Under the pieces are notes generated by a model. The model searched no databases. It worked only from the letters and a program-made list of their open reading frames with translations, and was not told the origin of the DNA. Shown one piece after another: positions 34,524 to 58,603 of a stretch of DNA of 61,691 nucleotides. Both the position numbers and the translations under genes were made by a program. This DNA comes from Candidatus Omnitrophota bacterium (GTDB taxonomy: Bacteria > Omnitrophota > Gorgyraeia > VGKH01). The stretch is taken from NCBI GenBank assembly GCA_043819095.1, contig JBDRFF010000015.1:1-61691 (forward strand). The letters run 5' to 3'. Each line of letters starts with the position of its first letter. The stretch's first letter is position 1.

Positions 34524-34551
34524 TTGAAAAACAGTAATTTTGTGTTATACT
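34524..34551 (+). promoter_or_regulatory. sigma70-like promoter of the riboswitch/pseudopilin operon
   Basis: TTGAAA (34524..34529), 16-nt spacer, TGT-TATACT extended -10 (34546..34551). Confidence 0.5.
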
Positions 34552-34570: not shown

Positions 34571-34691
34571 ACGTTGAAAAAGGGTAAACCATCTGTAAAG
34601 ATGGGGCACAAAGCTAAGGACCCCGACGTCCCGACGATAAGTCGGGATTCCGACTGAAACGTCGGAATCGGGGCAGCCTAGCTGCCAGCGT
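34571..34691 (+). promoter_or_regulatory. c-di-GMP-I (GEMM-I)-like riboswitch aptamer
   Basis: AGGGUAAACC-[AUCU-GUAA-AGAU]-GGGGCACAAAGCUAAGG parallels Vc2 AGGGCAAACC-[AUUC-GAAA-GAGU]-GGGACGCAAAGCCUCCGG. P1 acguug/cagcgu closes the aptamer. The second arm gcuaagg...ccuagc encloses a branched insert. Confidence 0.65.
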
Positions 34692-34703
34692 TTATTTTTT
34701 TGT

Positions 34704-34743
34704 GACCCATCTTTTGAAGATAAAAGGATGGGTCAATTTTTTT
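34704..34743 (+). terminator. intrinsic terminator (riboswitch expression platform)
   Basis: gacccatctttt-gaagat-aaaaggatgggtc followed by aattttttt, about 60 nt before the first ATG. Confidence 0.7.
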
Positions 34744-34801
34744 AAAAAGCTACTTTAGAAAATTCTTCTTTTATGATAAACTAAAAACAACAGGAGCTGA
34801 A

Positions 34802-35923
34802 ATGAGAAACAAAGGTTTTACGACAATGGAAATGATGGTTGTGGCGGCGATAGGCGCAGGGCTACTTGCTATTGTCTTTAGCATATTTATGCTCCTCAAT
34901 ACCTCTCTTACAAAGGGCTTTAGCTCCATAGATTTAGTAGAGAAATCCCGCATCGCAATGGAACAAATCCAGCGATATTTGGAAAAATCCAGCCCTGAGA
35001 AGATTACCATTCAAAACTGTCTGGGAAACGAATGCAGTGGCCAGAAGCTTACATTCCAGGTTCCTGTGGTTACTAATGACGCGATTAGCGGAACAGTATT
35101 CAACTATTATGGTAACCCTAAATGGGGTGCTTTCTGGACAAAAGCCAACGGTAACTTTGCAACTAGAGAAAACGCCTATTTTACTTTTTACGCAGGTGCT
35201 GAAGGCACTGCAGACGAAGGAAAATTAATTATAAAGGTATGGCATACGGAAACAACCGGAGGAACCCCCGGTTGTTTTCTTGCCGGAACACCCATACTTA
35301 TGGCTGATGGCTCTAGGAAGCCTATTGAGGAAATAAAGGTAGGCGATGAAGTTTTAGCCTATAATGAAGAAACTGCTACGACTCAGAAGGATAAGGTAAC
35401 AAAGTTATTTGTACACGAGGATATTGAAGGATATCTTATAGTCAACGGAAATCTAAAAGTTACCCCTGAACACCGTTTTTACAGCCAAGAAAAATGGATT
35501 GAAATCGGCTCTCTAAAAGTCGGTGATAAGCTGCTTGATTACAAAGGCCAGACTCAGGAAATCACCAGCATAGAAAAAGTTAAAGAAAAAACCACGGTTT
35601 ATAATTTCGAGGTAGAACCATCTCATACTTATTTTGCAGGGGGATTCTTAGTACATAATGTAAAACTCTATGAGAGTGAATTAGCTGATCCTCCGGGTTC
35701 TACCAAATTATTTAGAGAGCTATTTTCTCCCGCAATAGCCTATGCTGACACAACTACAGTAATTGACGATAAAAAAACAATAGTCGATCATATAGATAAT
35801 ATAGAATTTGATGGGGGAACTAATAACCAGACGATAGTCATAGAAGCTACATTTGTTGTAGATGACCCTCAGCAAGGCGAAAATGAGAAGATCTACAAAA
35901 CTACAATTAGTCCTAGGAATTAA
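34802..35923 (+). CDS. prepilin-type protein with an embedded Hint (mini-intein/BIL-like) domain
   Basis: Class III signal MRNKG|FTTMEMMVVAAIGAGLLAIV (Glu+5). Residues 158-286 run CFLAGTPILMADG...VTPEHRF...VYNFEVEPSHTYFAGGFLVHN|V. Confidence 0.8.
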   Translation: MRNKGFTTMEMMVVAAIGAGLLAIVFSIFMLLNTSLTKGFSSIDLVEKSRIAMEQIQRYLEKSSPEKITIQNCLGNECSGQKLTFQVPVVTNDAISGTVFNYYGNPKWGAFWTKANGNFATRENAYFTFYAGAEGTADEGKLIIKVWHTETTGGTPGCFLAGTPILMADGSRKPIEEIKVGDEVLAYNEETATTQKDKVTKLFVHEDIEGYLIVNGNLKVTPEHRFYSQEKWIEIGSLKVGDKLLDYKGQTQEITSIEKVKEKTTVYNFEVEPSHTYFAGGFLVHNVKLYESELADPPGSTKLFRELFSPAIAYADTTTVIDDKKTIVDHIDNIEFDGGTNNQTIVIEATFVVDDPQQGENEKIYKTTISPRN

Positions 35924-35945: not shown

Positions 35946-38090
35946 ATGATGTTTAGACGAATACATAATAAAAAAGGTTTTATTTTCCCCTTTGCCTATT
36001 GTGTCATGGTTGCTATGGCTGTCTATGTTGCTGCCTTTGCAAACAGGGCGCTTAATGACCATAATATTGCAGAGAGGAATCTTCTGTCCCTGCAAATCAG
36101 ATACCAGACCATCCGCGGTGCGGAGTTTGGTATCCACGCAATAAAAACAAACGGATTCAACTGGCATACACATACAGCTGTGGAAAACGGCCCTGTTTAT
36201 GACCTTGTGTCTTTACAAGCGCAGGGACTAGAACCACCCGAAGTAAGCCTGCCACTTGTTACTTTTATTAACACAGATGGCGATTTGGAAGCTCGGGACG
36301 GAAGATTTAAAACAAGGGTATATGCTAGCCCTGTTTTCGGCACCATTTTGCTTGCCCAAGGTCTCGATTCCAGCGGGCAAAATCAATTGCGCGCTGTCAA
36401 ACTTCACTACCAATCGCTATACGATTATTTCCTATTTACCCCGCTTGAATTAGAACTATCTCATATTACCATGGATGCCCAAGAAGGAACAATGCATAGC
36501 AATAGGGATATTATCTTTGGCGATACAGCCAGTATATTGAATGTAGCCGCACTTAGCACGCCTGAGGCAATCCGGTATTATGTAGAAACTTATCTTCCCG
36601 GTGTCGATCCTCTTGATCCGATTGCCCCTGCGGGATATGTATGGGAAGAGATGTACTTCTGGCTTCGCTCTCCCTGGGTTGAGCCAAACCTAGACGGCGA
36701 ATATAGAAACCGTAACGATGGCCATCTAAGCGGCGAGCAAACCGGACTTTTAATGGAAAGCCCTAAAGACCCCGGAAAGTATATTGAATATAATCCGGCT
36801 GCGGGAAATCCAGCCTTGGACCCGGATGAATATCCTGAACTTTACGCAGATTCTTCGCTTATAAGTAATATAAACGGCAATGAATTCCCCAACCGTCTAG
36901 ACAGCGAATATCTCTGGGATAAATACTGGAGAATAACCGCAAATTATGGCACAGATCCAGTAGAAGTAGCAAAAAAATTTACGAACTCAGAATTACAGCC
37001 CGTGGCCTGGAGCAGTTTAATGAAAACTCTTGAATTAGACGATATAATAGCAGAGGCTAATTCAGGAGGCGAAGAAATTGGTGCCTTGACCATATCCGAG
37101 TCTGATTACAAAACTTCTGCCCAAGATAATGGGATATATATTGAGTACGGGGAGCTAACAAAGAAATTTCGTGTAAATAGGGCTGGAGAAGAATATATTA
37201 TTGACCCGGGCGGACAGCTCGTTATAAACGATGAAGTCATCTTCGAACACAAAACCTTTTTCAACACAAACAGCACCAATGAAAATGTAGTCTTAGTTGC
37301 TTATGTAGATAAAATGATTGAAGAAGATTTTTACCCGACAAACGGAATTATATTCTCAGACGGAAAAATCCTCCTTGATAATGCTAAAACGCTACCCGAT
37401 GGCGGCCTGACAACCTTAAGCAAAAGCGCTATCTACATAAAAGGCAATTACAACACTGAAGACTGGCAGCCCTCTGCTGCTATAGCTGCCGGTAGGATAT
37501 ATCTTTTATCTGATATATTTAATTACCCTCAAACGCTGCCGGATACATTCCACCATATTGAGCGTCCTTACGAAGAAGATTTTGTTGAGGGGAAGTATAA
37601 CTGGTATGAGGAACACGAAGCGACTATGGCTAATCCTGTGGATGAAGACTATACCTATGTTGTCTCGCTCATTGGTTATTTTGGCTATATGCCGGAAGCT
37701 CTGGAGAGATGGTGGGATTATGAAAACGAGGGAAGTTTATTCGTGCCTCCTTCTGGCCTGGTTGAGCACAAAAGGCACGTTATCGGCTCTTTAATCAGAC
37801 TGCCTTACGGAACTATTGCGGGTGTAGGAGTATGGGATGACGTAAATAACAGAGGCTCTAGGGAAAGAACCAATCCTGGGCAGGCAGGACTCACCTGGCC
37901 GGATGACATGGGCAGCGTAGAGCCAAAAGATGCCAATAATTATTTCAGTTATGACAACCATTATATTTCGGGTTCAGGTTCGATAAGACCGCCGGGAGAT
38001 TTTACGAATTCAATAAAGTTAGATACTAAGCTCAGGCCAAAAGTCGGGACACTTAATACTTGGACTCAATGGCTTCCTGAGTTAAATTAG
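35946..38090 (+). CDS. giant pseudopilin-like protein (GspK/PilX-like N-terminus, no Glu+5), large uncharacterised domain
   Basis: N-terminus KKGFIFPFAYCVMVAMAVYVAAFANRAL. 714 aa. Paralog of 38858..41335. Confidence 0.6.
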   Translation: MMFRRIHNKKGFIFPFAYCVMVAMAVYVAAFANRALNDHNIAERNLLSLQIRYQTIRGAEFGIHAIKTNGFNWHTHTAVENGPVYDLVSLQAQGLEPPEVSLPLVTFINTDGDLEARDGRFKTRVYASPVFGTILLAQGLDSSGQNQLRAVKLHYQSLYDYFLFTPLELELSHITMDAQEGTMHSNRDIIFGDTASILNVAALSTPEAIRYYVETYLPGVDPLDPIAPAGYVWEEMYFWLRSPWVEPNLDGEYRNRNDGHLSGEQTGLLMESPKDPGKYIEYNPAAGNPALDPDEYPELYADSSLISNINGNEFPNRLDSEYLWDKYWRITANYGTDPVEVAKKFTNSELQPVAWSSLMKTLELDDIIAEANSGGEEIGALTISESDYKTSAQDNGIYIEYGELTKKFRVNRAGEEYIIDPGGQLVINDEVIFEHKTFFNTNSTNENVVLVAYVDKMIEEDFYPTNGIIFSDGKILLDNAKTLPDGGLTTLSKSAIYIKGNYNTEDWQPSAAIAAGRIYLLSDIFNYPQTLPDTFHHIERPYEEDFVEGKYNWYEEHEATMANPVDEDYTYVVSLIGYFGYMPEALERWWDYENEGSLFVPPSGLVEHKRHVIGSLIRLPYGTIAGVGVWDDVNNRGSRERTNPGQAGLTWPDDMGSVEPKDANNYFSYDNHYISGSGSIRPPGDFTNSIKLDTKLRPKVGTLNTWTQWLPELN

Positions 38091-38103: not shown

Positions 38104-38856
38104 ATGAAAAATAAAGGATTTTCGCTTATTGAGATATTGGTGGTGGTGGTCGTCGGTATTGGACTAATGGGTGTAACATTTGGTGTTTTTCTCACAGGAA
38201 GAAACTCATGGTCTAAAAGCGAGGCATATATCGACCTGCAGGCCAAAACCCGCCTGGCAATGGACAAGATGGTAAAAGAACTGACTTCGTCTGCGCCCAG
38301 TAAAATTACATTAAGTAACTGTGCAGGCGATTTATGTAGTTCGATAGCGTTTATGGTACCTGTTGCTGTTGACGGCTCAATCTATAATGCCCAAGGCGAG
38401 ATAATATGGGGCGCTGAAGGTTGGGAAGACCTACCATACAGTTATTTTATAACATACGACAATCGACTTGTAAAAGCAGCCGGTGATGTCCAAGGTGCCT
38501 GCTGTCGCACAGGCGGTGTGTGCGAATACAGATACGAGTTTAAATGTGCTTCCTTGGGGGGCAGTTGGCGAGGACCGCTTATTCCCTGTAGCCCGAATCC
38601 GTGCGGCGGCGGGAAGGCGTTTCGTATAAAACCTTTTTTTGAATTTCTATTTGAATCTCCTCTTGCATATGCCCAAGAAAATTTTTGGGTATTTGCTAGC
38701 GATATCGAGGAAATAACCTTTAAAAATCCTCATGCCCCGGCCGCGCCAAAAACAATCAAAATAACCATCAGGGCCAAGAGAAAAACTATTTTAGGCGAAG
38801 AAATAGAAGTGATATTACATTCCACTGTCACTCCCAAAAACAGGGTGGTGAATTAA
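38104..38856 (+). CDS. prepilin-type protein with a six-Cys insert module
   Basis: MKNKG|FSLIEILVVVVVGIGLMGV (Glu+5). Paralog of 34802..35923. Insert: GACCRTGGVCEYRYEFKCASLGGSWRGPLIPCSPNPCGGG. Confidence 0.8.
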   Translation: MKNKGFSLIEILVVVVVGIGLMGVTFGVFLTGRNSWSKSEAYIDLQAKTRLAMDKMVKELTSSAPSKITLSNCAGDLCSSIAFMVPVAVDGSIYNAQGEIIWGAEGWEDLPYSYFITYDNRLVKAAGDVQGACCRTGGVCEYRYEFKCASLGGSWRGPLIPCSPNPCGGGKAFRIKPFFEFLFESPLAYAQENFWVFASDIEEITFKNPHAPAAPKTIKITIRAKRKTILGEEIEVILHSTVTPKNRVVN

Positions 38857-38857
38857 T

Positions 38858-41335
38858 ATGTTTCGATATAATCTATTAAGAAAAAACGACGGTTTTATGC
38901 TGCTTGGCACATACCTTGTTATTTCTGTGCTGATTGTCCTGGCAGCGGTCTTGTTTACTATTACTGTCAACGAACATAACTTAACAAAAAAATCCCTGGA
39001 TAGTATGGCTGCCGCGTATCAAGCGCAAAAGGGCATAGATCATGTCTTAATCGAAATAAAAAATAAACCAAGCTTCTTTACGCATCAGGCTGTAGACCAA
39101 GGTGGCAATAGTTATCTTTTAGAACCACACCCTGACGTTGCTTCTCTTACCCCTCACTTTGGTCAAATAGTTGGTGGTAATTATGTCTCTGATTCCACTG
39201 AAGGGCCCCATTTCAGAGTAAGGACATACGTAGACCCCATAAGCGGTACCGATGAAATTATTATCCTTGCCCAGGGATATAGCAGTGGCGACGAGACTAT
39301 ATCATCTCGTCGATTATTAGTATCCAAATACGTGCCTACTTCGCTGTATAAGTACTTTTTCTTCAGCCCTAGGGATCTCGATTTCTGGGGCGAGCAATAT
39401 GATGCTGATGGAGGAAGCATCCACGCTAATGGCTGGATTATTTTCAAAGCCGATGCGGATTTCTTTAATTTAGGAGAAATAAGCACTGAAAAATATTTTA
39501 AATATTACGTCAAGGGCTACGTCCCTCCTCGCGATCAGAATGCCGGCCTGGACGGAGGCGGCGTAATGAGAACCTGGGAAGAAGTTTTTTGGGGATGGAG
39601 CGACCCCTATTCTATACCAAACGACAATAATACAGGGATTGCGCTCTATGACTATTTAAATAATCCTGATGGCCATAATTATGGCAATAAAGTCGGTCTT
39701 AAGAATACGAGTGGCGGAAACTGGGACGGATTAGACCTAGAGACATTATGCGACCCGAGAGACTATGCTTGTTACTCAATTTATGCCAGAAACACCTCGA
39801 TAAACGGGGTTGATATCCCCACCTGGCTTAATACAATCTATCAAATAAATAAATATGAAGAGCTATCAGGTACAGGCTTCTGGTCTCGTGACAGATACTG
39901 GACTTATCCCGGGCAGGACATAGATGTGCAACACTTCAACAGCGATTCTCAATATACTGACTGGGCAAGCTTTCTCGCTGGTGCTGGCCTCGATAGTATA
40001 GTCAAAGATGCTAATACCGGCGGCATCCATATTGAGCCTCCGTCTATCGGCGGTTCCAGTGAATATGCAATGGCTGCATTTGAAGGAGGCATAGGTATTT
40101 TTGGAACTGAATATCCTGTGGGTTCTGGGAATTGGACTCTTTATGTAATGTTAAATGGTGAGGCGCCGATTATATTACCATTAGATGGCGAAATTACCAT
40201 CAATGACGAGATAGTGTTCGAACATGAAACTTTTACAGATGTAAACAGTGGGAAATTTAAGGATAATGTAGTCAAGGTCAATATCAAGGCGCTTAAAGAT
40301 GCTTTTCCAGGCAACGACGGTGGCCTAACGCAAAAAATAATCTATTCCACAATACCTGTAGCTATATCCCAGGCAGAGAGCATACTAGAAAGCGGGCTCA
40401 CAATCGTAGGCGCTGATAATGTGTATCTTCACGGCAATTATAATACAGGAACCGATCCAGACGATTTCTATGCTGAGGAAGATCCAAATGACACCATAGC
40501 CCGGCCTTCGGCTGTAATTACTGCAATGGATGTATACACGCTATCTGATTTTTTCTACGGCTTCAATGACTTATATGATTCTTGGTGGCCAGACCCCGAA
40601 TACGTCCCTGTACCTGAACATAATTTTAATTATCCACAGGAGTATGATTTTTATTGTCCGCAAGAAAGTTCTGGCTTTTATAATGCGAATTGTATCACAA
40701 CCTTAATTGAAGATCATAATCGGGATCCCGAAAAAACCACGCATTCCAGTTATGAGGACGGCCGAAACTGGTTTGCTGATACAAATAATCCTGATTGTGC
40801 TGGACTGCCTAATTTTTTATGTATGGCTAACCCCGTAATGGAAGACTCTTATTATTATAATGTCGCTATGGTTGGCTATAGAGGCTTTCAAGCTAGAGTA
40901 CTAGAAAGATGGCAATATCCCCTGGATGATAACGGAGACTTAACAGTTGGAAATAAAACAACCCCTCCTCCTCCAGGCAGGTCATCAAAGGAAAGAACAA
41001 TAAGGGGGGCCTTTATCCAGTTGGAAAAAGAAGACTTTGATCCAGAGGAAGTCAATAATTACTTTGATGGTTATGATAATTCTACAGCAAGGGGCTTTTG
41101 CGTAGGTGGCGGGCCTGCTGGTTATTGTCGAGATCCGGACTTTCCTGGTTGGTACTGGGATATGACTTCCGTTTCACCGGGTTCCAATTCTAACCATTTT
41201 AAGTATGAAACTCAATTTGCTCAAGGCGTTCTGCCGCCGGGAAGCCTAGTAGGATTTTCTACTGAAGTAATTTTGGAGCTGGCGAATACTGTTCATAACT
41301 GGAGTTTTCATTACAATCCCATATCTGCTCAGTAA
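38858..41335 (+). CDS. giant pseudopilin-like protein, paralog of 35946..38090
   Basis: N-terminus NDGFMLLGTYLVISVLIVLAAVLFTITVNE. Shared motifs include INDEIVFEHETF, GNYNT and VLERWQ. 825 aa. Confidence 0.6.
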   Translation: MFRYNLLRKNDGFMLLGTYLVISVLIVLAAVLFTITVNEHNLTKKSLDSMAAAYQAQKGIDHVLIEIKNKPSFFTHQAVDQGGNSYLLEPHPDVASLTPHFGQIVGGNYVSDSTEGPHFRVRTYVDPISGTDEIIILAQGYSSGDETISSRRLLVSKYVPTSLYKYFFFSPRDLDFWGEQYDADGGSIHANGWIIFKADADFFNLGEISTEKYFKYYVKGYVPPRDQNAGLDGGGVMRTWEEVFWGWSDPYSIPNDNNTGIALYDYLNNPDGHNYGNKVGLKNTSGGNWDGLDLETLCDPRDYACYSIYARNTSINGVDIPTWLNTIYQINKYEELSGTGFWSRDRYWTYPGQDIDVQHFNSDSQYTDWASFLAGAGLDSIVKDANTGGIHIEPPSIGGSSEYAMAAFEGGIGIFGTEYPVGSGNWTLYVMLNGEAPIILPLDGEITINDEIVFEHETFTDVNSGKFKDNVVKVNIKALKDAFPGNDGGLTQKIIYSTIPVAISQAESILESGLTIVGADNVYLHGNYNTGTDPDDFYAEEDPNDTIARPSAVITAMDVYTLSDFFYGFNDLYDSWWPDPEYVPVPEHNFNYPQEYDFYCPQESSGFYNANCITTLIEDHNRDPEKTTHSSYEDGRNWFADTNNPDCAGLPNFLCMANPVMEDSYYYNVAMVGYRGFQARVLERWQYPLDDNGDLTVGNKTTPPPPGRSSKERTIRGAFIQLEKEDFDPEEVNNYFDGYDNSTARGFCVGGGPAGYCRDPDFPGWYWDMTSVSPGSNSNHFKYETQFAQGVLPPGSLVGFSTEVILELANTVHNWSFHYNPISAQ

Positions 41336-50122: not shown

Positions 50123-50201
50123 TGGCGGGGACGACGGGATTCGAACCCGCGATCTTCAGATCGACAATCTGACGCGTTAAACCAAACTACGCTACGTCCC
50201 C
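50123..50201 (-). tRNA. tRNA-Asp (anticodon GUC), CCA encoded
   Basis: Hand-folded cloverleaf. Acceptor ggggacg/cgtcccc, anticodon arm tcaga-ttGTCga-tctga, T-loop ttcgaat. Confidence 0.9.
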
Positions 50202-50349: not shown

Positions 50350-50423
50350 TGGGCGATAGAGGACTTGAACCCCTGACCCTCTGCGTGTAAAGCAGATGCT
50401 CTAACCAACTGAGCTAATCGCCC
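50350..50423 (-). tRNA. tRNA-Val (anticodon UAC), CCA not encoded
   Basis: Hand-folded. Acceptor gggcgat/atcgccc, D-arm gctc-agttggtta-gagc, anticodon arm tctgc-ttTACac-gcaga. Confidence 0.9.
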
Positions 50424-52386: not shown

Positions 52387-52605
52387 AATGAGACCGTGAC
52401 TTACGCGACTGCTAAAGGAGCGTAAGCCATTTGGTCGAATTAAACCCACCACCACTTTTAGTAATGAGGCGTTCTTTTTACATAAAACGTTTATCTTCTT
52501 TTCAAACCCACCACTTTAATTCTACAGTAGTTTCTAAAAGTGGTGGGGGTCAAACTCAGACAAACAACTTACGTTCACTTTCGCTCCGTAAGTTGTGTCT
52601 TCGTT
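52387..52605 (-). repeat. family 1 element, copy D (219 bp)
   Basis: cttacgc/gcgtaag; cccaccaccactttt/aaaagtggtggggg; acaacttacg/cgtaagttgt. The central ~70 nt is homologous to copy A. Overlaps the last 10 codons of ntpI. Confidence 0.85.
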
Positions 52606-54341
52606 TTAAATGGTACGTATGGAGATCCTGACCATTCCATACCGAGATGACTTGAGAATTCTAAGACATTTAATCTGAGTCCGTGCACCAAAATAGACAT
52701 GGCGCCTAAGGCTATATTTAAAGTATGACCAAGAAGTAAAATTATAACGGTTATTACTCCGCCTAGGATACCGTCTCCTACGCCTGCGGCCATCTGATTG
52801 AATGCATCTGCCACTGCAACGGTGGCAGTGCCTATGGCAAATAATCGAATGTAAGAAACCACATCAGTAAAACTACTGACGGCGTTGAGAAGAAAATCCT
52901 TAAATCCCAATCCTACGCTTTTAAAAACATTTCTCGAGGGATTGCTAAATAATACTATAAGGCCGGCTCCGACGATAAAAAGCCATTTGGCAAAAACAGG
53001 AAACACCTCGCTTAAAATCAACATCCGCGCCAGAAAGAACGCGCCCCAAAGCATGCATATCCAGCCTATCTCACTTAAACTCTTAAGATGCGGCATCTTC
53101 ATCAATCCTTTCCACAGATGCGCGATGCTTAAGTGTAGCGCCCCGATAAAAAAGCACAATGCCTGCATATTCCTACTGTTATTTAAAGAAGGCATCAACG
53201 GCTCAATGCGCTGCACAAGCCAGGCCTGGCCAAAGAAAGTGCCGGTAAGCACGCCCCAGATTATCGCGGTCGCACTTAATATATACATCAGAGAAAAAAT
53301 TCGCGTATCCTTAAGAGTCTTATTTAATTTTCTGTGCAGGAAAAGATTCAGAAGCAATACTATTACGCCATAACCGGCATCTCCTATCAATATCCCGAAA
53401 AACACAGAGAAAAATAACAAAAACCATAGACTTATATCTACCTCTTTGTATCCAGGCAAAGCCTTTATAATATCAAATACAGGTTTGATTATCTGGACCC
53501 AGCGAGGATTTCTGATCAATGTCGGCACATTATCATTTATGTCGGGCTCTTCAATAAGAAGGCCCCATCTTTCGTGGCTTGACTTTTCTTCCAGAAGCAC
53601 AACCGAATCATAAGGAATATATCCCCGCACATAAGAAAGCATTTCGGATTTCCCCGCGCCTACCAAGGTTTCCTGAAACTGCAAAATCGATTCCAGGCGC
53701 TCTTGATAATCATTCAATGCTCTTTTGTATTGTGCGTAAATATGAATTTTTTCATCGATCTTCTTTATCTTTTCTCGGTCACTATTTTGTTTTTTTAATA
53801 CGCTACCCAATCTTTCTTTGGGCAGTTCCAAAACCTCAAAAGGTACTTTTATATCTCTTTGAGAAATCAATGCGCAATAGAGAGAGCTACTTTTTTTAAA
53901 TAGAATCTGCGTAACTATATCCTCGGGGATCTCTTTTTTTCTTTTTTCGGGAATTACGGCGAGATGAACTCGTAAATTTTTATTTTTAAAATATTCGATA
54001 AGTGCGGGATCAAAATCGCCCCATTCCTGCCAGCGGTCGATATGCCTCTGTCTTTTAAGCATATCATCCTGAATGCGTTTCTTTTCTTTTAAGGCGCTGA
54101 CTATTTCGTCTGCTATGTGCTGTTCATTGCCTCGTAAATGCTTTTGCGTCTCAGTATCCGCAAGTACTGCAGTTGCCTGTGCAACGCGCATCATCTCAAG
54201 CTTAAGCCTTTGTACTTCGTCTCCCACAGGAACATTCTGGTGTTCCACATGCAAAACTCCTAAATCTCGCAGCGACTTCAGAGTTTCTTTAGTATCCTTT
54301 GATTGCACAACCACAGTTATTTTTTTCATCGGGACTATCAT
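52575..54341 (-). CDS. ntpI: V-type ATPase subunit I
   Basis: 588 aa. Soluble coiled N-half plus a multi-TM C-half. The final codons KTKTQLTERK and the stop lie inside repeat copy D. Confidence 0.85.
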   Translation of the reverse strand: MIVPMKKITVVVQSKDTKETLKSLRDLGVLHVEHQNVPVGDEVQRLKLEMMRVAQATAVLADTETQKHLRGNEQHIADEIVSALKEKKRIQDDMLKRQRHIDRWQEWGDFDPALIEYFKNKNLRVHLAVIPEKRKKEIPEDIVTQILFKKSSSLYCALISQRDIKVPFEVLELPKERLGSVLKKQNSDREKIKKIDEKIHIYAQYKRALNDYQERLESILQFQETLVGAGKSEMLSYVRGYIPYDSVVLLEEKSSHERWGLLIEEPDINDNVPTLIRNPRWVQIIKPVFDIIKALPGYKEVDISLWFLLFFSVFFGILIGDAGYGVIVLLLNLFLHRKLNKTLKDTRIFSLMYILSATAIIWGVLTGTFFGQAWLVQRIEPLMPSLNNSRNMQALCFFIGALHLSIAHLWKGLMKMPHLKSLSEIGWICMLWGAFFLARMLILSEVFPVFAKWLFIVGAGLIVLFSNPSRNVFKSVGLGFKDFLLNAVSSFTDVVSYIRLFAIGTATVAVADAFNQMAAGVGDGILGGVITVIILLLGHTLNIALGAMSILVHGLRLNVLEFSSHLGMEWSGSPYVPFKTKTQLTERK

Positions 54342-54955
54342 GCAACGGCCCCCTCTGCTACTGCCTGGGCAATTTTATTTTTTGCCAGCTTGCTGCGGCC
54401 TACGGCATTGGTCTGTTGGTCACCGAGATAAATTCTAATCTTTCGAATATTCTCTCTGCATTCCGGAATCTTTACCTTTTCAAGCAGATTAACCCTTTGG
54501 GTAGTAATGCGTAATTCCTCCTGCAATAATTTAACTTGAGTCTTAAGCACGCGCGTCTCTTCAATTAATATTATAAGTCCCTGAATCTTTTTTATTGCTG
54601 TATCTACCCACAATGGCGTAGAAAATAAATCATATTCAACTTTGCCAAATTCAACGCGCTCTAACACAGGCAGGTCAACGCTTGCGATATTTATGGTTTT
54701 AACGATTATATTTCGCGGTTTAACCCAGCTATTAAAATCTTTTGATCGCTCGACGAGAAGCCCTACCCAAATTTTGATCTTTCGCTGAAAAATCTCTATT
54801 TCTTTAAGCTTTTCATTTAATTCGATACGCAATCGTTGGATCTCAATCATGATCTGTTGTTTCTTCAACTGCAACGTAGGAAGATAACGCTCGAATTGTT
54901 TTAGGCTGTCTCTTTGTCTTTTAAGTTCGCCTTTTGTCAATCTTATCTTTGCCAT
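54338..54955 (-). CDS. ntpD: V-type ATPase subunit D
   Basis: 205 aa coiled-coil protein. MAKIRLTKGELKRQRDSLKQFERYLPTLQLKKQQ is typical. Confidence 0.85.
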   Translation of the reverse strand: MAKIRLTKGELKRQRDSLKQFERYLPTLQLKKQQIMIEIQRLRIELNEKLKEIEIFQRKIKIWVGLLVERSKDFNSWVKPRNIIVKTINIASVDLPVLERVEFGKVEYDLFSTPLWVDTAIKKIQGLIILIEETRVLKTQVKLLQEELRITTQRVNLLEKVKIPECRENIRKIRIYLGDQQTNAVGRSKLAKNKIAQAVAEGAVA

Positions 54956-54987
54956 GGAGCCACCATCGCTTCCTTGTTTGTGGCGAC

Positions 54988-55030
54988 ATCCGCCGTAGCT
55001 GAAGGCGAAAGCGCTTCAGCGAAGGCGGAT
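54988..55030 (-). other. GC-rich intercistronic stem-loop between ntpB and ntpD
   Basis: atccgcc..gctgaag-gcgaaagc-cttcagc..ggcggat nested palindrome inside an otherwise AT-rich spacer. Confidence 0.5.
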
Positions 55031-55033
55031 AAA

Positions 55034-56332
55034 TTATGTTTTTTTTGGCCAGAATTTATCTATAAGACTAGATTGTATGCCTGTCTCTGCAGGCTCAAAA
55101 TTCTCAGCCATGATTTCCCAGCCTAAATCAAGGGCCTTTTCAAGCGGGACATTAACAGAAAGGTTCATTAATTTCTCTTCGAATGACTTTCCGTATTTTA
55201 ACAGCTTCTTATCCCATTGGCTCATGCGAAAACCCATAGCTAGTTTTTCTTTGGTCTCGCGGTATTCGGCAAAAAGCTGCGTCATAGTATTCATAATAGT
55301 CCTGTGGTCATCTCTGGTCTTGCCGTTTACCTGCTGTTTCAGACGGCTTAAAGAACCGAATAAATCAATCACGCCGTTGCGTAAATAAAACTGTCCTTCA
55401 GTAATATATCCTGTATTGTCCGGAACAGGATGGGTAATATCATCGCCGGGCATTGTGGTGACAGCAAGAATGGTAATGGCGCCAGCTGTATCAAAATCAA
55501 CTGCCTTTTCGTATCGCGCGGCCAGCTGACTATACAGATCTCCGGGATAGCCTCTGTTTGAAGGAATCTGCTGCATGGTAATTGAGATTTCTTTTAATGC
55601 GTCGGCAAAATTGGTCATATCCGTCAGGAGCACAAGCACTCTTTTACCTGCCAGGGCAAACTGCTCAGCCACTGCAAGCGACATATCAGGAACTAATAGA
55701 CATTCTACGGTAGGATCTGATGCAGTATGGACAAAAAATATCGACTTGGAAAGTGCTCCATGGCTCTCAAATGTATTGCGAAAGAAAAGATAATCATCGT
55801 ATTTAAGTCCTAATCCTCCGAGAATAATCATATCCACTTCGGTCTGTATGGCAATACGTGCCAAAAGTTCGTTATACGGCTCGCCGGGCACAGAGAATAT
55901 TGGCAGTTTCTGTGATTCCACCAGCGAATTAAAAACATCTATCATAGGAATTCCTGTGCGTATCATCCTCCTTGGAATAATTCTCTTGGCGGGATTAACC
56001 GGAGGACCGCCGATATCTATCATATTTTCAGTAAGAGCAGGCCCATTATCGCGCGCCAAGCCTGCGCCATTAAATATGCGTCCCATAAGGTTACTCGAGA
56101 AAGATACCCTCATAGGATGATGTAAAAATCTGACCCTATCTCCGGTAGAGACGCCGCGACTACCGGCAAACACCTGTAAATAAGTTCGGTTGTCATCCAT
56201 GCGGATAACCTGCGCCAAAGATGCGCCTCTACTAGACTGGATCTCCGCAAGCTCCTTATAACCTACGCCTTCGGCCTCGACGGTAACAACGTCACCGGAA
56301 ATCTGTAAGATACGATTATAAATCCTTTTCAT
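55034..56332 (-). CDS. ntpB: V-type ATPase subunit B
   Basis: 432 aa, a non-catalytic A/B-family subunit. Overlaps the ntpA stop by 17 nt. Confidence 0.9.
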
Positions 56333-58076
56333 TTTCTTTGTTTGTATCTATCCTTTTTTCTTGGACGTTAGTTCTTATCTCTTTTTCCTTGGACTTAAAT
56401 TCACTTACCTGCCAGGCTATGGAATTCCATTCATGGAATTTCTGGACTAGGACCTGGAAAAATTTTCGCGACTCTGCTTTATCCTTAAAATCAAATTCCG
56501 AAGTAATAATTTCGTGAATCACATTAAAGACATATCGCTGCCTCTCTGCAATAGTTGATTCATCAACCTCATCATAAGCATTCTGCTGCAAAAATACGGC
56601 ATCGATAAATTCGCCTTTCATATGGACGGTAAAATCTGCCAGAGAAGTACCTTCTTCGCCGATTACCTTCATCATATGATATACTTCATTGCTCTTGCGT
56701 AATATCCGTTTGCCATCGCTAACTTGTTTTTCATCGACAACGCTCTTATATTTACTCCAGCTGTCTAATGGATCAATGGCAGGGTATTTTCGTGCATTAG
56801 AACGGTCGCGCGAAAGCCCGTGGAAAGCGCCCACTACTTTTAATGTTGCCTGCGTTACTGGCTCCTCGAAATTTCCTCCGGCAGGGCTTACCGTGCCGCC
56901 GATGGTTACAGAACCAAGACTTCCGTCGCGCAACTTTACAATGCCAGCCCGTTCATAAAATGAGGCTATTCTTGTCTCTAAGTAAGCTGGAAAAGCCTCT
57001 TCGCCGGGAATCTCTTCCAGGCGACCAGACATCTCACGCATAGCTTGGGCCCAGCGCGAAGTTGAATCAGCCAAAAGCAAAACATGCAATCCCATTTGTC
57101 TGTAATACTCAGCAATCGTTACTGCCGTATACACGCTCGATTCCCGAGCAGCAACAGGCATAGAGCTTGTATTACAAATAATCACCGTGCGGTCAATAAG
57201 CGGCTTGTTGGTCTTGGCATCCTTTATTTCAGGGAACGTCCTTAATGTCTCTACAACCTCTCCTGCGCGCTCACCGCAGGCTGCGATAATCACAACGTCA
57301 ATCTCTGCGTGCCTGCTAATCAACTGCTGCAAAACTGTCTTGCCCGAACCGAATGGCCCGGGAATACAATACGTTCCACCCTGAGCTACGGGGAAGAAGG
57401 TATCGATTAATCTAATCTTTGTATTTAATGGTTCCTCCGGTCTAAGTTTTTCTGAATAGGCAGTGATGGGGATCTTCACCGGCCAGATCTGCTGCATACT
57501 TGCTTTATGGATTTTTCCCTGCTCATCTCTAAGTTCGGCAATGGTGTCTTTAAGCTTGTAGATTCCGGCTTTTGCAATTTTTGTTATCTTCAGATCCCCT
57601 TTGAGAACAAAGGGAACCATAATCCAGTGCTTGAACATCCCTTCGTTAACAAAACCAAGCTTATCCGCGGATTTAACTTTATCGTTCTGTTTTGCAGTAG
57701 GCGTAAATTTCCATTTATCTGTATCGGGTAATGCCTCCAGATATACGCCGCGCTTTAAGAAAAATCCGTATTTTTCTGCCAACTGCGGTAGGGGATTCTG
57801 CAGGCCGTCGAATATCTGGCCCAGCAATCCCGGCCCAAGCTCGACGGATAAAAGCTCCCCGGTAAATTCTACTCGCTCGTTGATTTTAATGCCACCTGTA
57901 TCTTCGTAGACCTGGAGCTCTGCGCTGTTGCCCTTTACGCGGATTACTTCTGACTTAAGTCGCTCCTCATTATGAATAATATATGCTACTTCATTTTGAA
58001 TGACATAGTCGTCGAATGAGACAATAGCCATATTCCCGTTTATTCCGGAGACTCTGCCGTATCTTTGGTTTTTCAT
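56316..58076 (-). CDS. ntpA: V-type ATPase catalytic subunit A
   Basis: 586 aa. Walker [10 protein letters not shown], and the non-homologous insert typical of A subunits. Confidence 0.95.
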
Positions 58077-58603
58077 AGTTTACCCGAAAGTTCCTCTAAT
58101 ATATTTACGCCTTCTTCTTGATTAATCTTTTTCCAGCGCTCTAATATCTGTAGCTCTAAGGCATAGGAGGCCAAAAATTCAATATCAAAAAAATGCCCCA
58201 CCTTTAAATCTTCTATTTTTTCCCAGCGTATACGGTCAAGCAATCGCTCTGCCTCGAGCACAGAATCCTGATTATACACCTGCTGTGCAAAATAACCGGT
58301 AAAAGGATTGCGGTATTCTTCAGCGCGAATGTAGCTTAATGCGTCTTTGCCTTTTTTAGCTGCGCGAAGCCAAACCAATTCATTACGCAGAGCTAAATCA
58401 AATTCCTTCCATTCCTGTAGAAATGCGAAGTTATCCTGGGTTGTCTTCGGCGGCTCAATGGTTGAGCGCTCGATAATTCTCATATCAGAATCCGAAAACT
58501 GTTCCTTACAGCGAACTAAAAAATCCTCATAGGAAATAGGTGGCATTAGGCCAAACTCAAGCATAGGAAGGCTGGCTGCTAAATAATAATAGTGAGCACT
58601 CAT
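58073..58603 (-). CDS. DUF2764-family protein (V-ATPase operon-associated)
   Basis: Starts MSAHYYYLAASLPML. Its position between E and A matches Bacteroidetes/Chlamydia-type operons. Confidence 0.55.
   Translation of the reverse strand: MSAHYYYLAASLPMLEFGLMPPISYEDFLVRCKEQFSDSDMRIIERSTIEPPKTTQDNFAFLQEWKEFDLALRNELVWLRAAKKGKDALSYIRAEEYRNPFTGYFAQQVYNQDSVLEAERLLDRIRWEKIEDLKVGHFFDIEFLASYALELQILERWKKINQEEGVNILEELSGKL

Follow-up and report, generated by a model that had tools for sequence, protein, structure and literature searches.

Within a 61,691-nucleotide stretch of DNA from a Candidatus Omnitrophota bacterium (assembly GCA_043819095.1, contig JBDRFF010000015.1, positions 1 to 61,691; hereafter the window), the gene of a 373-residue prepilin-like protein, pilin 1, carries an internal Hint domain resembling the bacterial intein-like (BIL) domains. 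Judged by the residues present, the insert is a catalytically intact, A-type-BIL-like Hint within the Pfam family PT-HINT. We consider, with moderate confidence, that it acts as an autoprocessing module of the BIL-like kind which removes itself from the pilin after export, the predicted excision occurring most likely by cleavage, with or without an amine-mediated religation of the flanks. A putative self-removing insert, and not a toxin-release device or a classical intein, is therefore our best reading of this domain. The host is probably a minor, modular type IV pilin-like protein, and probably tip-associated. The gene and its parts are the following.

34802..35923, plus strand: pilin 1, 373-residue prepilin-like protein with the Hint domain (open reading frame translation, Pfam and NCBIfam profiles, homologue search and family alignment).
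34802..35272, plus strand: N-extein, residues 1-157, with the class III signal peptide MRNKG/FTTME, the alpha-1 helix (residues 8-61) and the first beta strands.
35273..35659, plus strand: Hint/BIL domain, residues 158-286, with Cys158, Thr221-x-x-His224, Asn268, His275 and His285-Asn286 (profiles, PDB sequence matches and Foldseek).
35660..35701, plus strand: post-Hint linker VKLYESELADPPGS, with Val287 as +1 and Lys288 as +2 (low confidence in the AlphaFold2 (AF2) model of the Hint-less sequence).
35702..35920, plus strand: C-terminal pilin part, residues 301-373, with the helix KLFRELF, A-x-A, four beta strands and the terminal Asn373 (alignment, AF2 and C-extein profile).

A previous sequence-only reading of this DNA had called the open reading frame a prepilin, and this call holds. 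The N-terminus reads MRNKG/FTTMEMMVVAAIGAGLLAIVFSIF, with Gly at -1, Phe at +1, Glu at +5 and then a hydrophobic helix, as expected of a type IV pilin subunit's class III signal peptide. The profiles fall just short on pilin 1 itself (Pfam N_methyl, E 0.18; NCBIfam TIGR02532, 16.2 bits for a cut-off of 16.3). N_methyl was detected at E <= 0.01 in 37 of the 53 aligned family sequences, the best value being 3e-9, the homologues are named prepilin-type or PulG-like in the databases, and AF2 predicts a helix with a beta domain. The N-extein ends in the linker TTGGTPG. On the other side of the Hint, Ala313-x-Ala315 (35738-35746), some 27 residues past the domain, represents the A-[YFW]-A motif that is invariant in the pilin family, and Asn373 (35918-35920) is likewise invariant in the family alignments. 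It is the final residue in most members, the exceptions being representative P0013 and the second pilin of the window (pilin 2), in which it lies 2-4 residues before the end.

The Hint unit begins with Cys158 at nucleotide 35273 and finishes with Asn286 at nucleotide 35659, residue 287 being Val. These are exactly the coordinates proposed from the sequence alone, and the motifs then quoted for blocks A, B and F/G were all found again (CFLAGTPILMADG, VTPEHRF for block B, and VYNFEVEPSHTYFAGGFLVHN). A comparison with Hint and PT-HINT profiles, which the sequence-only reading had proposed as a check, gave a significant match to Pfam PT-HINT (PF07591; residues 167-285, profile positions 4-135 of 137, E 8.8e-23, 81.5 bits for a cut-off of 27.7). 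Further matches were obtained with Intein_splicing (E 3e-11), Hom_end_hint (E 9.6e-09) and the NCBIfam model intein_Cterm (TIGR01443; 17.8 bits, above its 15.6-bit cut-off). Since Pfam and NCBIfam profiles detected no other domain inside the 129-residue unit, the Hint is without a homing endonuclease, again in agreement with the earlier claim.

Among PDB sequences, the nearest solved relative is the Clostridium thermocellum BIL domain 2LWY (E 1.4e-18), and the second match is BIL2 of Tetrahymena BUBL1 (E 7e-13), with mini-inteins at E 1e-5 to 1e-3. Structures were compared with Foldseek, using the confident Hint part of the full-length AF2 model, over which the predicted local distance difference test score (pLDDT) is 84-92. 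The best match was BUBL BIL2 (6Y75, 6TMM; E 2.6e-13, template modelling (TM) score 0.80-0.82, 32-33% identity), and 2LWY aligned with a TM score of 0.84, a root mean square deviation of 2.0 and 39% identity. Inteins gave TM scores of 0.70-0.76 and Hedgehog proteins 0.72-0.75. The AF2 confidence and the Foldseek matches together indicate a Hint fold. Compared with the Hedgehog type (Hog), the domain differs in having a terminal His-Asn and in not being followed by a sterol- or adduct-recognition region. Cys158, Thr221 and His224, His285-Asn286 and the non-nucleophilic Val287 at +1 are the hallmarks of A-type BIL domains, and the site, in a hypervariable region of a non-conserved surface or secreted protein, is also typical of them. 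In the comparison with PDB entries, 2LWY outscores the inteins.

Conservation was counted over 54 Hint copies extracted from Omnitrophota, in 53 of which the +1 residue could be scored. Cys1 and the block-B Thr and His are present in all 54 copies and the terminal His-Asn in 53. The +1 residue is Lys in 39 copies, Ala in 4, Arg in 3 and Gly in 2, with Ser, Val, Leu, Met and Tyr occurring once each and neither Cys nor Thr in any of the 53. The Val at +1 of pilin 1 had led the sequence-only reading to a BIL or PT-HINT type instead of a canonical intein. This assignment stands, PT-HINT being the best Pfam family and 2LWY and BUBL BIL2 the best structures, but the Val itself turns out to be atypical, as the rule of the clade is Lys at +1 and the Lys is found here at +2.

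These counts bear on whether the domain could be a canonical class-1 intein, splicing by trans-esterification to a +1 nucleophile. Class-1 mini-inteins (Ssp and Npu DnaB, Mtu RecA) share the fold of the domain and its blocks A, B, F and G, and intein models match weakly, but the sequence similarity to them is lower than to BIL domains, which match better, and no Cys, Ser or Thr stands at +1, where pilin 1 has Val and the clade a single Ser. Moreover, the site is not conserved as in inteins; it is a hypervariable surface-protein loop whose length and content are free among relatives. We regard a canonical intein as highly improbable.

The hosts of the clade comprise pilins of the present family with an internal Hint, non-pilin secreted proteins and tandem-Hint proteins. 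In a second, small pilin type the Hint is C-terminal, followed by a tail of 11-20 residues. In all, 27 of the 54 copies lie at the extreme C-terminus, and their tails of 3-26 residues begin with Lys, are rich in Pro, Gly and Glu and are little conserved. We considered whether a conserved post-Hint tail might form part of a mobile unit; beyond the +1 Lys this found no support, the tails varying from 3 to 26 residues. Tandem arrangements were also seen, with two Hints in P0006, P0010, P0011 and P0003 and three in P0163, separated by spacers of only 2-6 residues (for example ...HN-KP-CLLAGT...), Cys1 and His-Asn being intact in every tandem copy. In P0014 (414 residues, 5 contigs) the N-terminal half of the Hint is intact and ...VHN is replaced by ...FRLAA in an open reading frame, which points either to decay of the C-terminal cleavage site or to a pair of local frameshifts in the assemblies.

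The likeness of the pilin 1 Hint to the known BIL domains (Dassa et al. 2004; 2LWY, Aranko et al. 2013) can be put more precisely. All are about 130-140 residues long without an endonuclease, with Cys1, TxxH, a VYNF..HTY block and a terminal His-Asn but no +1 nucleophile, and their hosts are secreted or surface proteins in which they occupy a hypervariable part. Unlike these, the present domain has a type IV pilin-like host, in which it interrupts a single fold with a conserved C-terminal part, and it belongs to a clade with Lys at +1 (39 of 53), tandems of two to three copies and a large expansion in Omnitrophota.

The pilin family was collected by an exhaustive phmmer search with the N-extein alone, the units being cluster representatives. 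This replaced an extein-only word-index search, which was too insensitive and returned only the query and P0002. Of the 52 family representatives found, 18 carry a Hint. All members share the N-terminal pilin part and a C-terminal part with A-x-A and the terminal Asn, and between these the centre is hypervariable. It consists of a short linker only in P0121 (244 residues), P0126 and P0131, of poly-Pro in P0132, of one or two six-Cys modules in pilin 2 of the window and in its counterpart in L001 (one of the loci described below), and of CGDGxC-type modules in P0127 and P0142. Cys-rich modules are followed by a Hint in P0124, P0128, P0129, P0130, P0133, P0141, P0143 and P0014, and in other members the Hint is the sole element of the centre. 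The insertion loop can be empty, can hold Cys-rich modules or can combine these with a Hint. The internal Hint is the last element of the variable centre, always in the same loop, flanked by Gly- and Pro-rich linkers and separated from the conserved F..LF....A[YF]A segment by roughly 10-45 residues, most often 12-25.

Two kinds of Cys-rich repeat occupy this loop. The first is a module of about 35 residues with the pattern CCxxGxCx7CxxxGGx3Gx4Cx4C, single or in tandem (P0123, P0124, P0128, P0129, P0014) and in many relatives directly before a Hint; neither Pfam nor NCBIfam has a match for it. The second is a CGDGxCxxxxGExxxxCxxDC-like repeat (P0127, P0130, P0141, P0142, P0143, P0003, P0015), often upstream of the Hint.

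A relative without the insert, which the sequence-only reading had suggested looking for, was found in P0121. Its identity to the Hint-bearing P0009 is 71% over the N-extein and 63% over the C-extein, far closer than that of P0009 to the window protein, and a loop of 19 residues stands where P0009 has Gly9, the Hint and 12 residues. A religated P0009 loop would have about 21 residues, compared with the 19 of the natural P0121 loop. At the P0121 locus the next gene encodes a 709-residue partner and is followed by a pilin 2 bearing a Cys module and a Hint. On sequence and gene order, P0121 is a true syntenic ortholog without the insert; therefore, the insert can be lost cleanly.

The part of the pilin that follows the Hint was also traced. 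The 87-residue C-extein had been described as homologous to the paralogous pilin. Pairwise BLASTP between pilin 1 and pilin 2 aligned only the first 110 residues (40% identity) and missed the C-terminal homology, which was confirmed by a C-extein profile built from nine Hint-bearing orthologs (pilin 2 residues 179-246, E 7.2e-8; P0121, E 1.7e-25). As the C-extein is recognisable in Hint-bearing and Hint-less members alike, it is still used in the mature protein. This bears heavily on the idea of a pre-toxin Hint, that is, a polymorphic-toxin device releasing a C-terminal toxin domain. The best Pfam family is indeed PT-HINT, the more distant matches include RHS and other toxin proteins, and the PT-HINT domains of polymorphic toxins (PMC3482391) similarly lie in exported proteins just before the C-terminal segment. 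Here, however, the 87 residues after the Hint are no toxin; they form the C-terminal pilin fold common to Hint-less relatives. Nor does an immunity-like small gene come next, a conserved partner of about 710 residues following in all loci. A toxin-releasing function is thus scarcely credible for pilin 1.

To model the pilin without its insert, the window protein with the Hint deleted was submitted to AF2 with 53 family sequences. The model reached a pLDDT of 90.2 and a predicted TM score (pTM) of 0.78, with an N-terminal helix at residues 8-61 (54 residues) and ten strands contributed by both exteins; its only weak stretch is residues 151-190, comprising the junction loop and linkers. The predicted model mirrors the family fold and is no proof of splicing. 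Foldseek found no significant match of this model in the PDB, and the pilin head is thus not assignable to a solved pilin subtype; the best sensible match was the Thermus type IV-like pilin TTHA1219 (probability 0.66, TM score 0.38-0.46). The full-length AF2 model (12 sequences) was good in the Hint part and poor in the pilin part, with a mean pLDDT of 63.8.

The sequence-only reading had further supposed that the formation of a normal pilin fold hinges on excision. We found no support for this, because the insertion site is a flexible, low-confidence Gly-rich loop and the N- and C-termini of the Hint fold are adjacent. P0014, which has lost the terminal His-Asn, points the same way, as does the tolerance of tip pilins for bulky modules (PMC8179133). 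The pilin can probably fold with the Hint still in place.

A Hint that stays unprocessed in vivo could serve as one more building block of a modular pilin, for instance as a binding surface. In GspK pseudopilins a domain is inserted into the pilin beta-sheet, and pilin 1 resembles them in having an extra domain within the pilin. Modular type IV pilins with grafted domains are widespread, and their census has a single entry for the combination N_methyl - PF07591 (Raynaud et al. 2021, PMC8179133, Dataset S1). Like pilin 1, these proteins join a pilin module to an extra domain and are probably tip-located; unlike them, pilin 1 carries a predicted self-processing enzyme, internal and not appended, which is optional among close orthologs. 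The loop also houses non-catalytic Cys-rich modules, and P0014 has lost the terminal His-Asn, both of which would suit permanent display. On the other hand, a structural role gives no reason for keeping Cys1, TxxH and His-Asn in 53-54 of 54 copies, and the Gly- and Pro-rich linkers on either side of the Hint are those of a unit that folds and acts independently. Permanent display seems to us unlikely.

The history of the domain was examined through its conservation. Averaged over the pairs among nine orthologs, the Hints are 63% identical, the N-exteins 46% and the C-exteins 33%. When the window is compared with L001, the proportion of synonymous differences is 0.72 in both Hint and N-extein, that is, saturated, and the proportion of nonsynonymous differences (pN) is 0.07 in the Hint, 0.23 in the N-extein and 0.37 in the C-extein. 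By these measures the Hint is the most constrained part of the pilin 1 gene. Its saturated synonymous sites and low pN indicate that it is old in this lineage, has been inherited vertically and is under strong purifying selection. We also considered a recent gene conversion or transfer of the Hint in the pilin-1 lineage and rejected it, its synonymous sites being as saturated as those of the host. Since tblastn and a profile search in six frames found no other Hint copy in the window, there is no local donor for gene conversion. A rough neighbour-joining tree places the pilin-1 Hints together in a group that agrees with the host, and the Hints of other host types are interleaved, which suggests occasional movement of the Hint between genes over longer times.

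This interleaving is one of the observations that would fit a selfish or neutral passenger, a Hint mobile among Omnitrophota secreted-protein genes that is tolerated through its self-removal and brings no benefit to the pilus. The patchy distribution (18 of 52 family representatives), the nesting of a Hint-less ortholog among Hint-bearing ones and the tandem arrays of 2-3 Hints are further points in its favour. Such an element would be without a homing endonuclease, however, and the agreement of the pilin-1 Hint tree with the host, together with the saturated synonymous sites, indicates long vertical inheritance. The host evolves fast and the Hint is better conserved than it, which would be hard to explain if selection did no more than prevent harm to a loop that accepts almost any content. 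We give a passenger of this kind a low probability.

We thus return to autoprocessing, for which a plausible course can be outlined. BIL domains perform an N-S acyl shift and an Asn cyclisation. Pilin 1 would enter the membrane, its globular part would be exported, and the Hint would fold there. An N-S acyl shift would then generate a thioester between Gly157 and Cys158, and Asn286 would cyclise, cutting the bond to Val287. If water resolved the thioester, the product would be a nicked pilin whose two chains stay together through their common fold. Ligation by aminolysis, in which the freed amine of the C-flank attacks the thioester, was reportedly described by Dassa in 2004. In pilin 1 the attack could come from Val287, through its freed alpha-amine, or from the neighbouring Lys288, through its epsilon-amine, and the product would be a religated pilin of about 244 residues, resembling the natural Hint-less orthologs, with a junction reading ...TTGGTPG-VKLYESELADPPGSTK. 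In either case the pilus subunit would lose a 14-kDa domain once it had been exported. Such a choice between products is in line with the behaviour of BIL domains without a +1 nucleophile, which mainly cleave at their N- and C-termini and can also ligate (PMC7664689; PMC7765530). The passages of these two papers on BIL domains refer to Amitai 2003, Dassa 2004 and Aranko 2013.

Several points weigh against this self-removal. P0014 is without the terminal His-Asn and has kept its frame intact on 5 contigs, so that C-terminal cleavage would be dispensable. Religation would be pointless for 27 of the 54 copies, because these are C-terminal and followed by tails of 3-26 residues, and selection in the clade may act on N-terminal cleavage or transfer alone. 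Tip pilins can carry large modules that are not removed (PMC8179133). The arrangement of the precursor is not shown by the full-length AF2 model, which is poor outside the Hint, and the ratios of nonsynonymous to synonymous substitution rates (dN/dS) are only rough because the synonymous rate is saturated.

Alternatively, the thioester might be handed off. The reactive Gly157 thioester, displayed on an exposed pilus subunit, would be resolved by an outside nucleophile, either a Lys of another pilin or of a partner protein, or an amine or hydroxyl on the surface of a prey or host, and the N-part of the pilin would become covalently linked to its target in a Hedgehog-like or BUBL-like transfer. 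BIL2 of BUBL1 from Tetrahymena thermophila, which is also without a +1 nucleophile and whose domain is the best structural match, resolves its thioester by a Lys epsilon-amine, forming an isopeptide and conjugating its N-flank to other proteins, according to the summary of Chiarini et al. 2021 contained in PMC8616854. Lys is kept at +1 or +2 in the clade, half of its copies stand at the C-terminus with only a very short tail behind them, which suits a transfer of the N-flank, and the type IV pili of Omnitrophota are thought to attach to host cells (PMC10066038). BUBL, however, is eukaryotic with ubiquitin-like flanks, whereas the flanks here are those of a pilin and a Lys acceptor is only a guess; neither a target nor an acceptor can be named. 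A simple transfer needs no terminal His-Asn, yet this is strictly conserved, the C-extein is conserved and so part of a functional protein, and the Hint-less ortholog evidently functions without a Hint. For these reasons, we judge a hand-off improbable in comparison with a self-removing insert.

Pilin 1 is the first gene of a plus-strand cassette of four, which encode pilin 1 (373 residues), a 714-residue protein, pilin 2 (250 residues) and an 825-residue protein. The other members are the following.

35946..38090, plus strand: 714-residue partner, with an N-terminal hydrophobic pilin-like segment without Glu5 (conserved in syntenic loci).
38104..38856, plus strand: pilin 2, 250-residue paralog without a Hint (BLASTP, alignment and C-extein profile).
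38500..38604, plus strand: six-Cys module CCRTGGVCEYRYEFKCASLGGSWRGPLIPCSPNPC of 35 residues, residues 133-167 of pilin 2, in the loop that holds the Hint in pilin 1 (alignment).
38858..41335, plus strand: 825-residue partner, paralog of the 714-residue protein (pairwise comparison).

The two partners are 29% identical (E 3e-64), and the N-terminus of the larger is, like that of the smaller, hydrophobic and pilin-like without Glu5. Neither has a Pfam or NCBIfam family match. Each pilin is followed by one partner gene, an order kept in all syntenic loci, and the partners may be tip or GspK/PilX-like components. The same cassette, with partners of about 710 and 810 residues, was found on independent contigs from other samples (L001-L006), at a shared chromosomal place with PAC2 and YjeF_N genes upstream and alpha/beta hydrolase and PCMT genes downstream. 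A scan of a genome collection confirmed at least 6 loci, in support of an Omnitrophota origin, the closest homologues come from Candidatus Omnitrophica/Omnitrophota metagenome bins, and the Hint-in-pilin architecture recurs on many contigs (P0002 on 8 and P0009 on 3, for example). An assembly chimera, which the sequence-only reading had named among the findings that would refute it, is excluded by this recurrence of architecture and cassette on independent contigs. Pfam revealed no prepilin peptidase or assembly gene among the 20 larger flanking open reading frames, nor were any present in the syntenic loci; these genes may be located in another part of the genome. Otherwise the window is ordinary chromosomal DNA, including the genes of elongation factor G and of purine metabolism as well as the following.

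50126-50201 and 50350-50423, minus strand: two tRNA genes.
52575-58603, minus strand: V/A-type ATPase operon, with subunits I, D, B and A and a DUF2764 protein.

Upstream of pilin 1, the 5' leader contains three elements.

34524..34551, plus strand: sigma-70-like promoter candidate TTGAAA-16-TATACT with a TG extension (pattern match only, with 10 of 12 matching in a consensus scan).
34573..34689, plus strand: c-di-GMP-I (GEMM-I) riboswitch aptamer with an enlarged second hairpin (Rfam RF01051).
34703..34745, plus strand: intrinsic-terminator-like hairpin with a 13-bp stem and a T-run, 57 nucleotides upstream of the start codon.

The aptamer scores 54.7 bits with RF01051, for a gathering score of 35, and 48.5 bits with the GGC-variant RF03167. 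It was also found upstream of the orthologous pilin in L001 (7813-7893), L004 (7855-7934) and L006 (309-388), two of these three being above the gathering score. The terminator hairpin is probably the expression platform of the riboswitch. Its 5' arm can pair with the aptamer segment 34598-34606 (-13.6 kcal/mol), and because of this complementarity a ligand-dependent termination (OFF) switch is suggested, whose logic we infer. The cassette would thus probably be switched by a cyclic dinucleotide.

The conserved Lys after His-Asn leads to a more speculative proposal, to which we attach only a small likelihood, namely that this residue is the missing nucleophile and that the Omnitrophota domains form a distinct BIL class using the Lys epsilon-amine in cis or in trans. 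Acting in cis, it would yield an isopeptide-spliced pilin. Acting in trans, it would couple tip subunits to each other, to the partner of about 710 residues or to a host or prey surface. If this were true, type IV pili would have in this pilin an equivalent of sortase-built pili or thioester adhesins, with the expression of the pilin's cassette set by c-di-GMP via the upstream riboswitch.

Our literature searches turned up no account of a pilin with a Hint or BIL domain. Zhang et al. 2012 (PMC3482391) do not mention pilins, and the only trace in the literature is one protein with the architecture IPR012902 - PF07591 in a supplementary table (Raynaud et al. 2021, PMC8179133). Already known are this family of domains and the fact that it favours variable exported proteins. 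New are the internal placement in a pilin fold at a fixed loop, the phylum-wide clade with its conserved His-Asn/Lys junction, the natural orthologs with and without the insert in a syntenic cassette, and the tandem Hints.

To our knowledge, the biological function of BIL domains has been unclear since their description in 2003, and most hosts known to us are poorly conserved proteins without a comparison partner. In the pilin family described here, a fixed loop together with Hint-less, Cys-module-only and Cys-module-plus-Hint relatives provides a ready comparative and experimental system, which bears on whether these domains cleave, splice or transfer, on the role of the +1 Lys and on the effect of processing on the pilus. 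A compact domain of 129 residues working without a +1 nucleophile in an exported context would, if active, also be of practical interest for protein engineering. Pilus biology, for its part, would gain its first pilin with a self-processing module, in a phylum whose pili are believed to be used for attaching to host cells.

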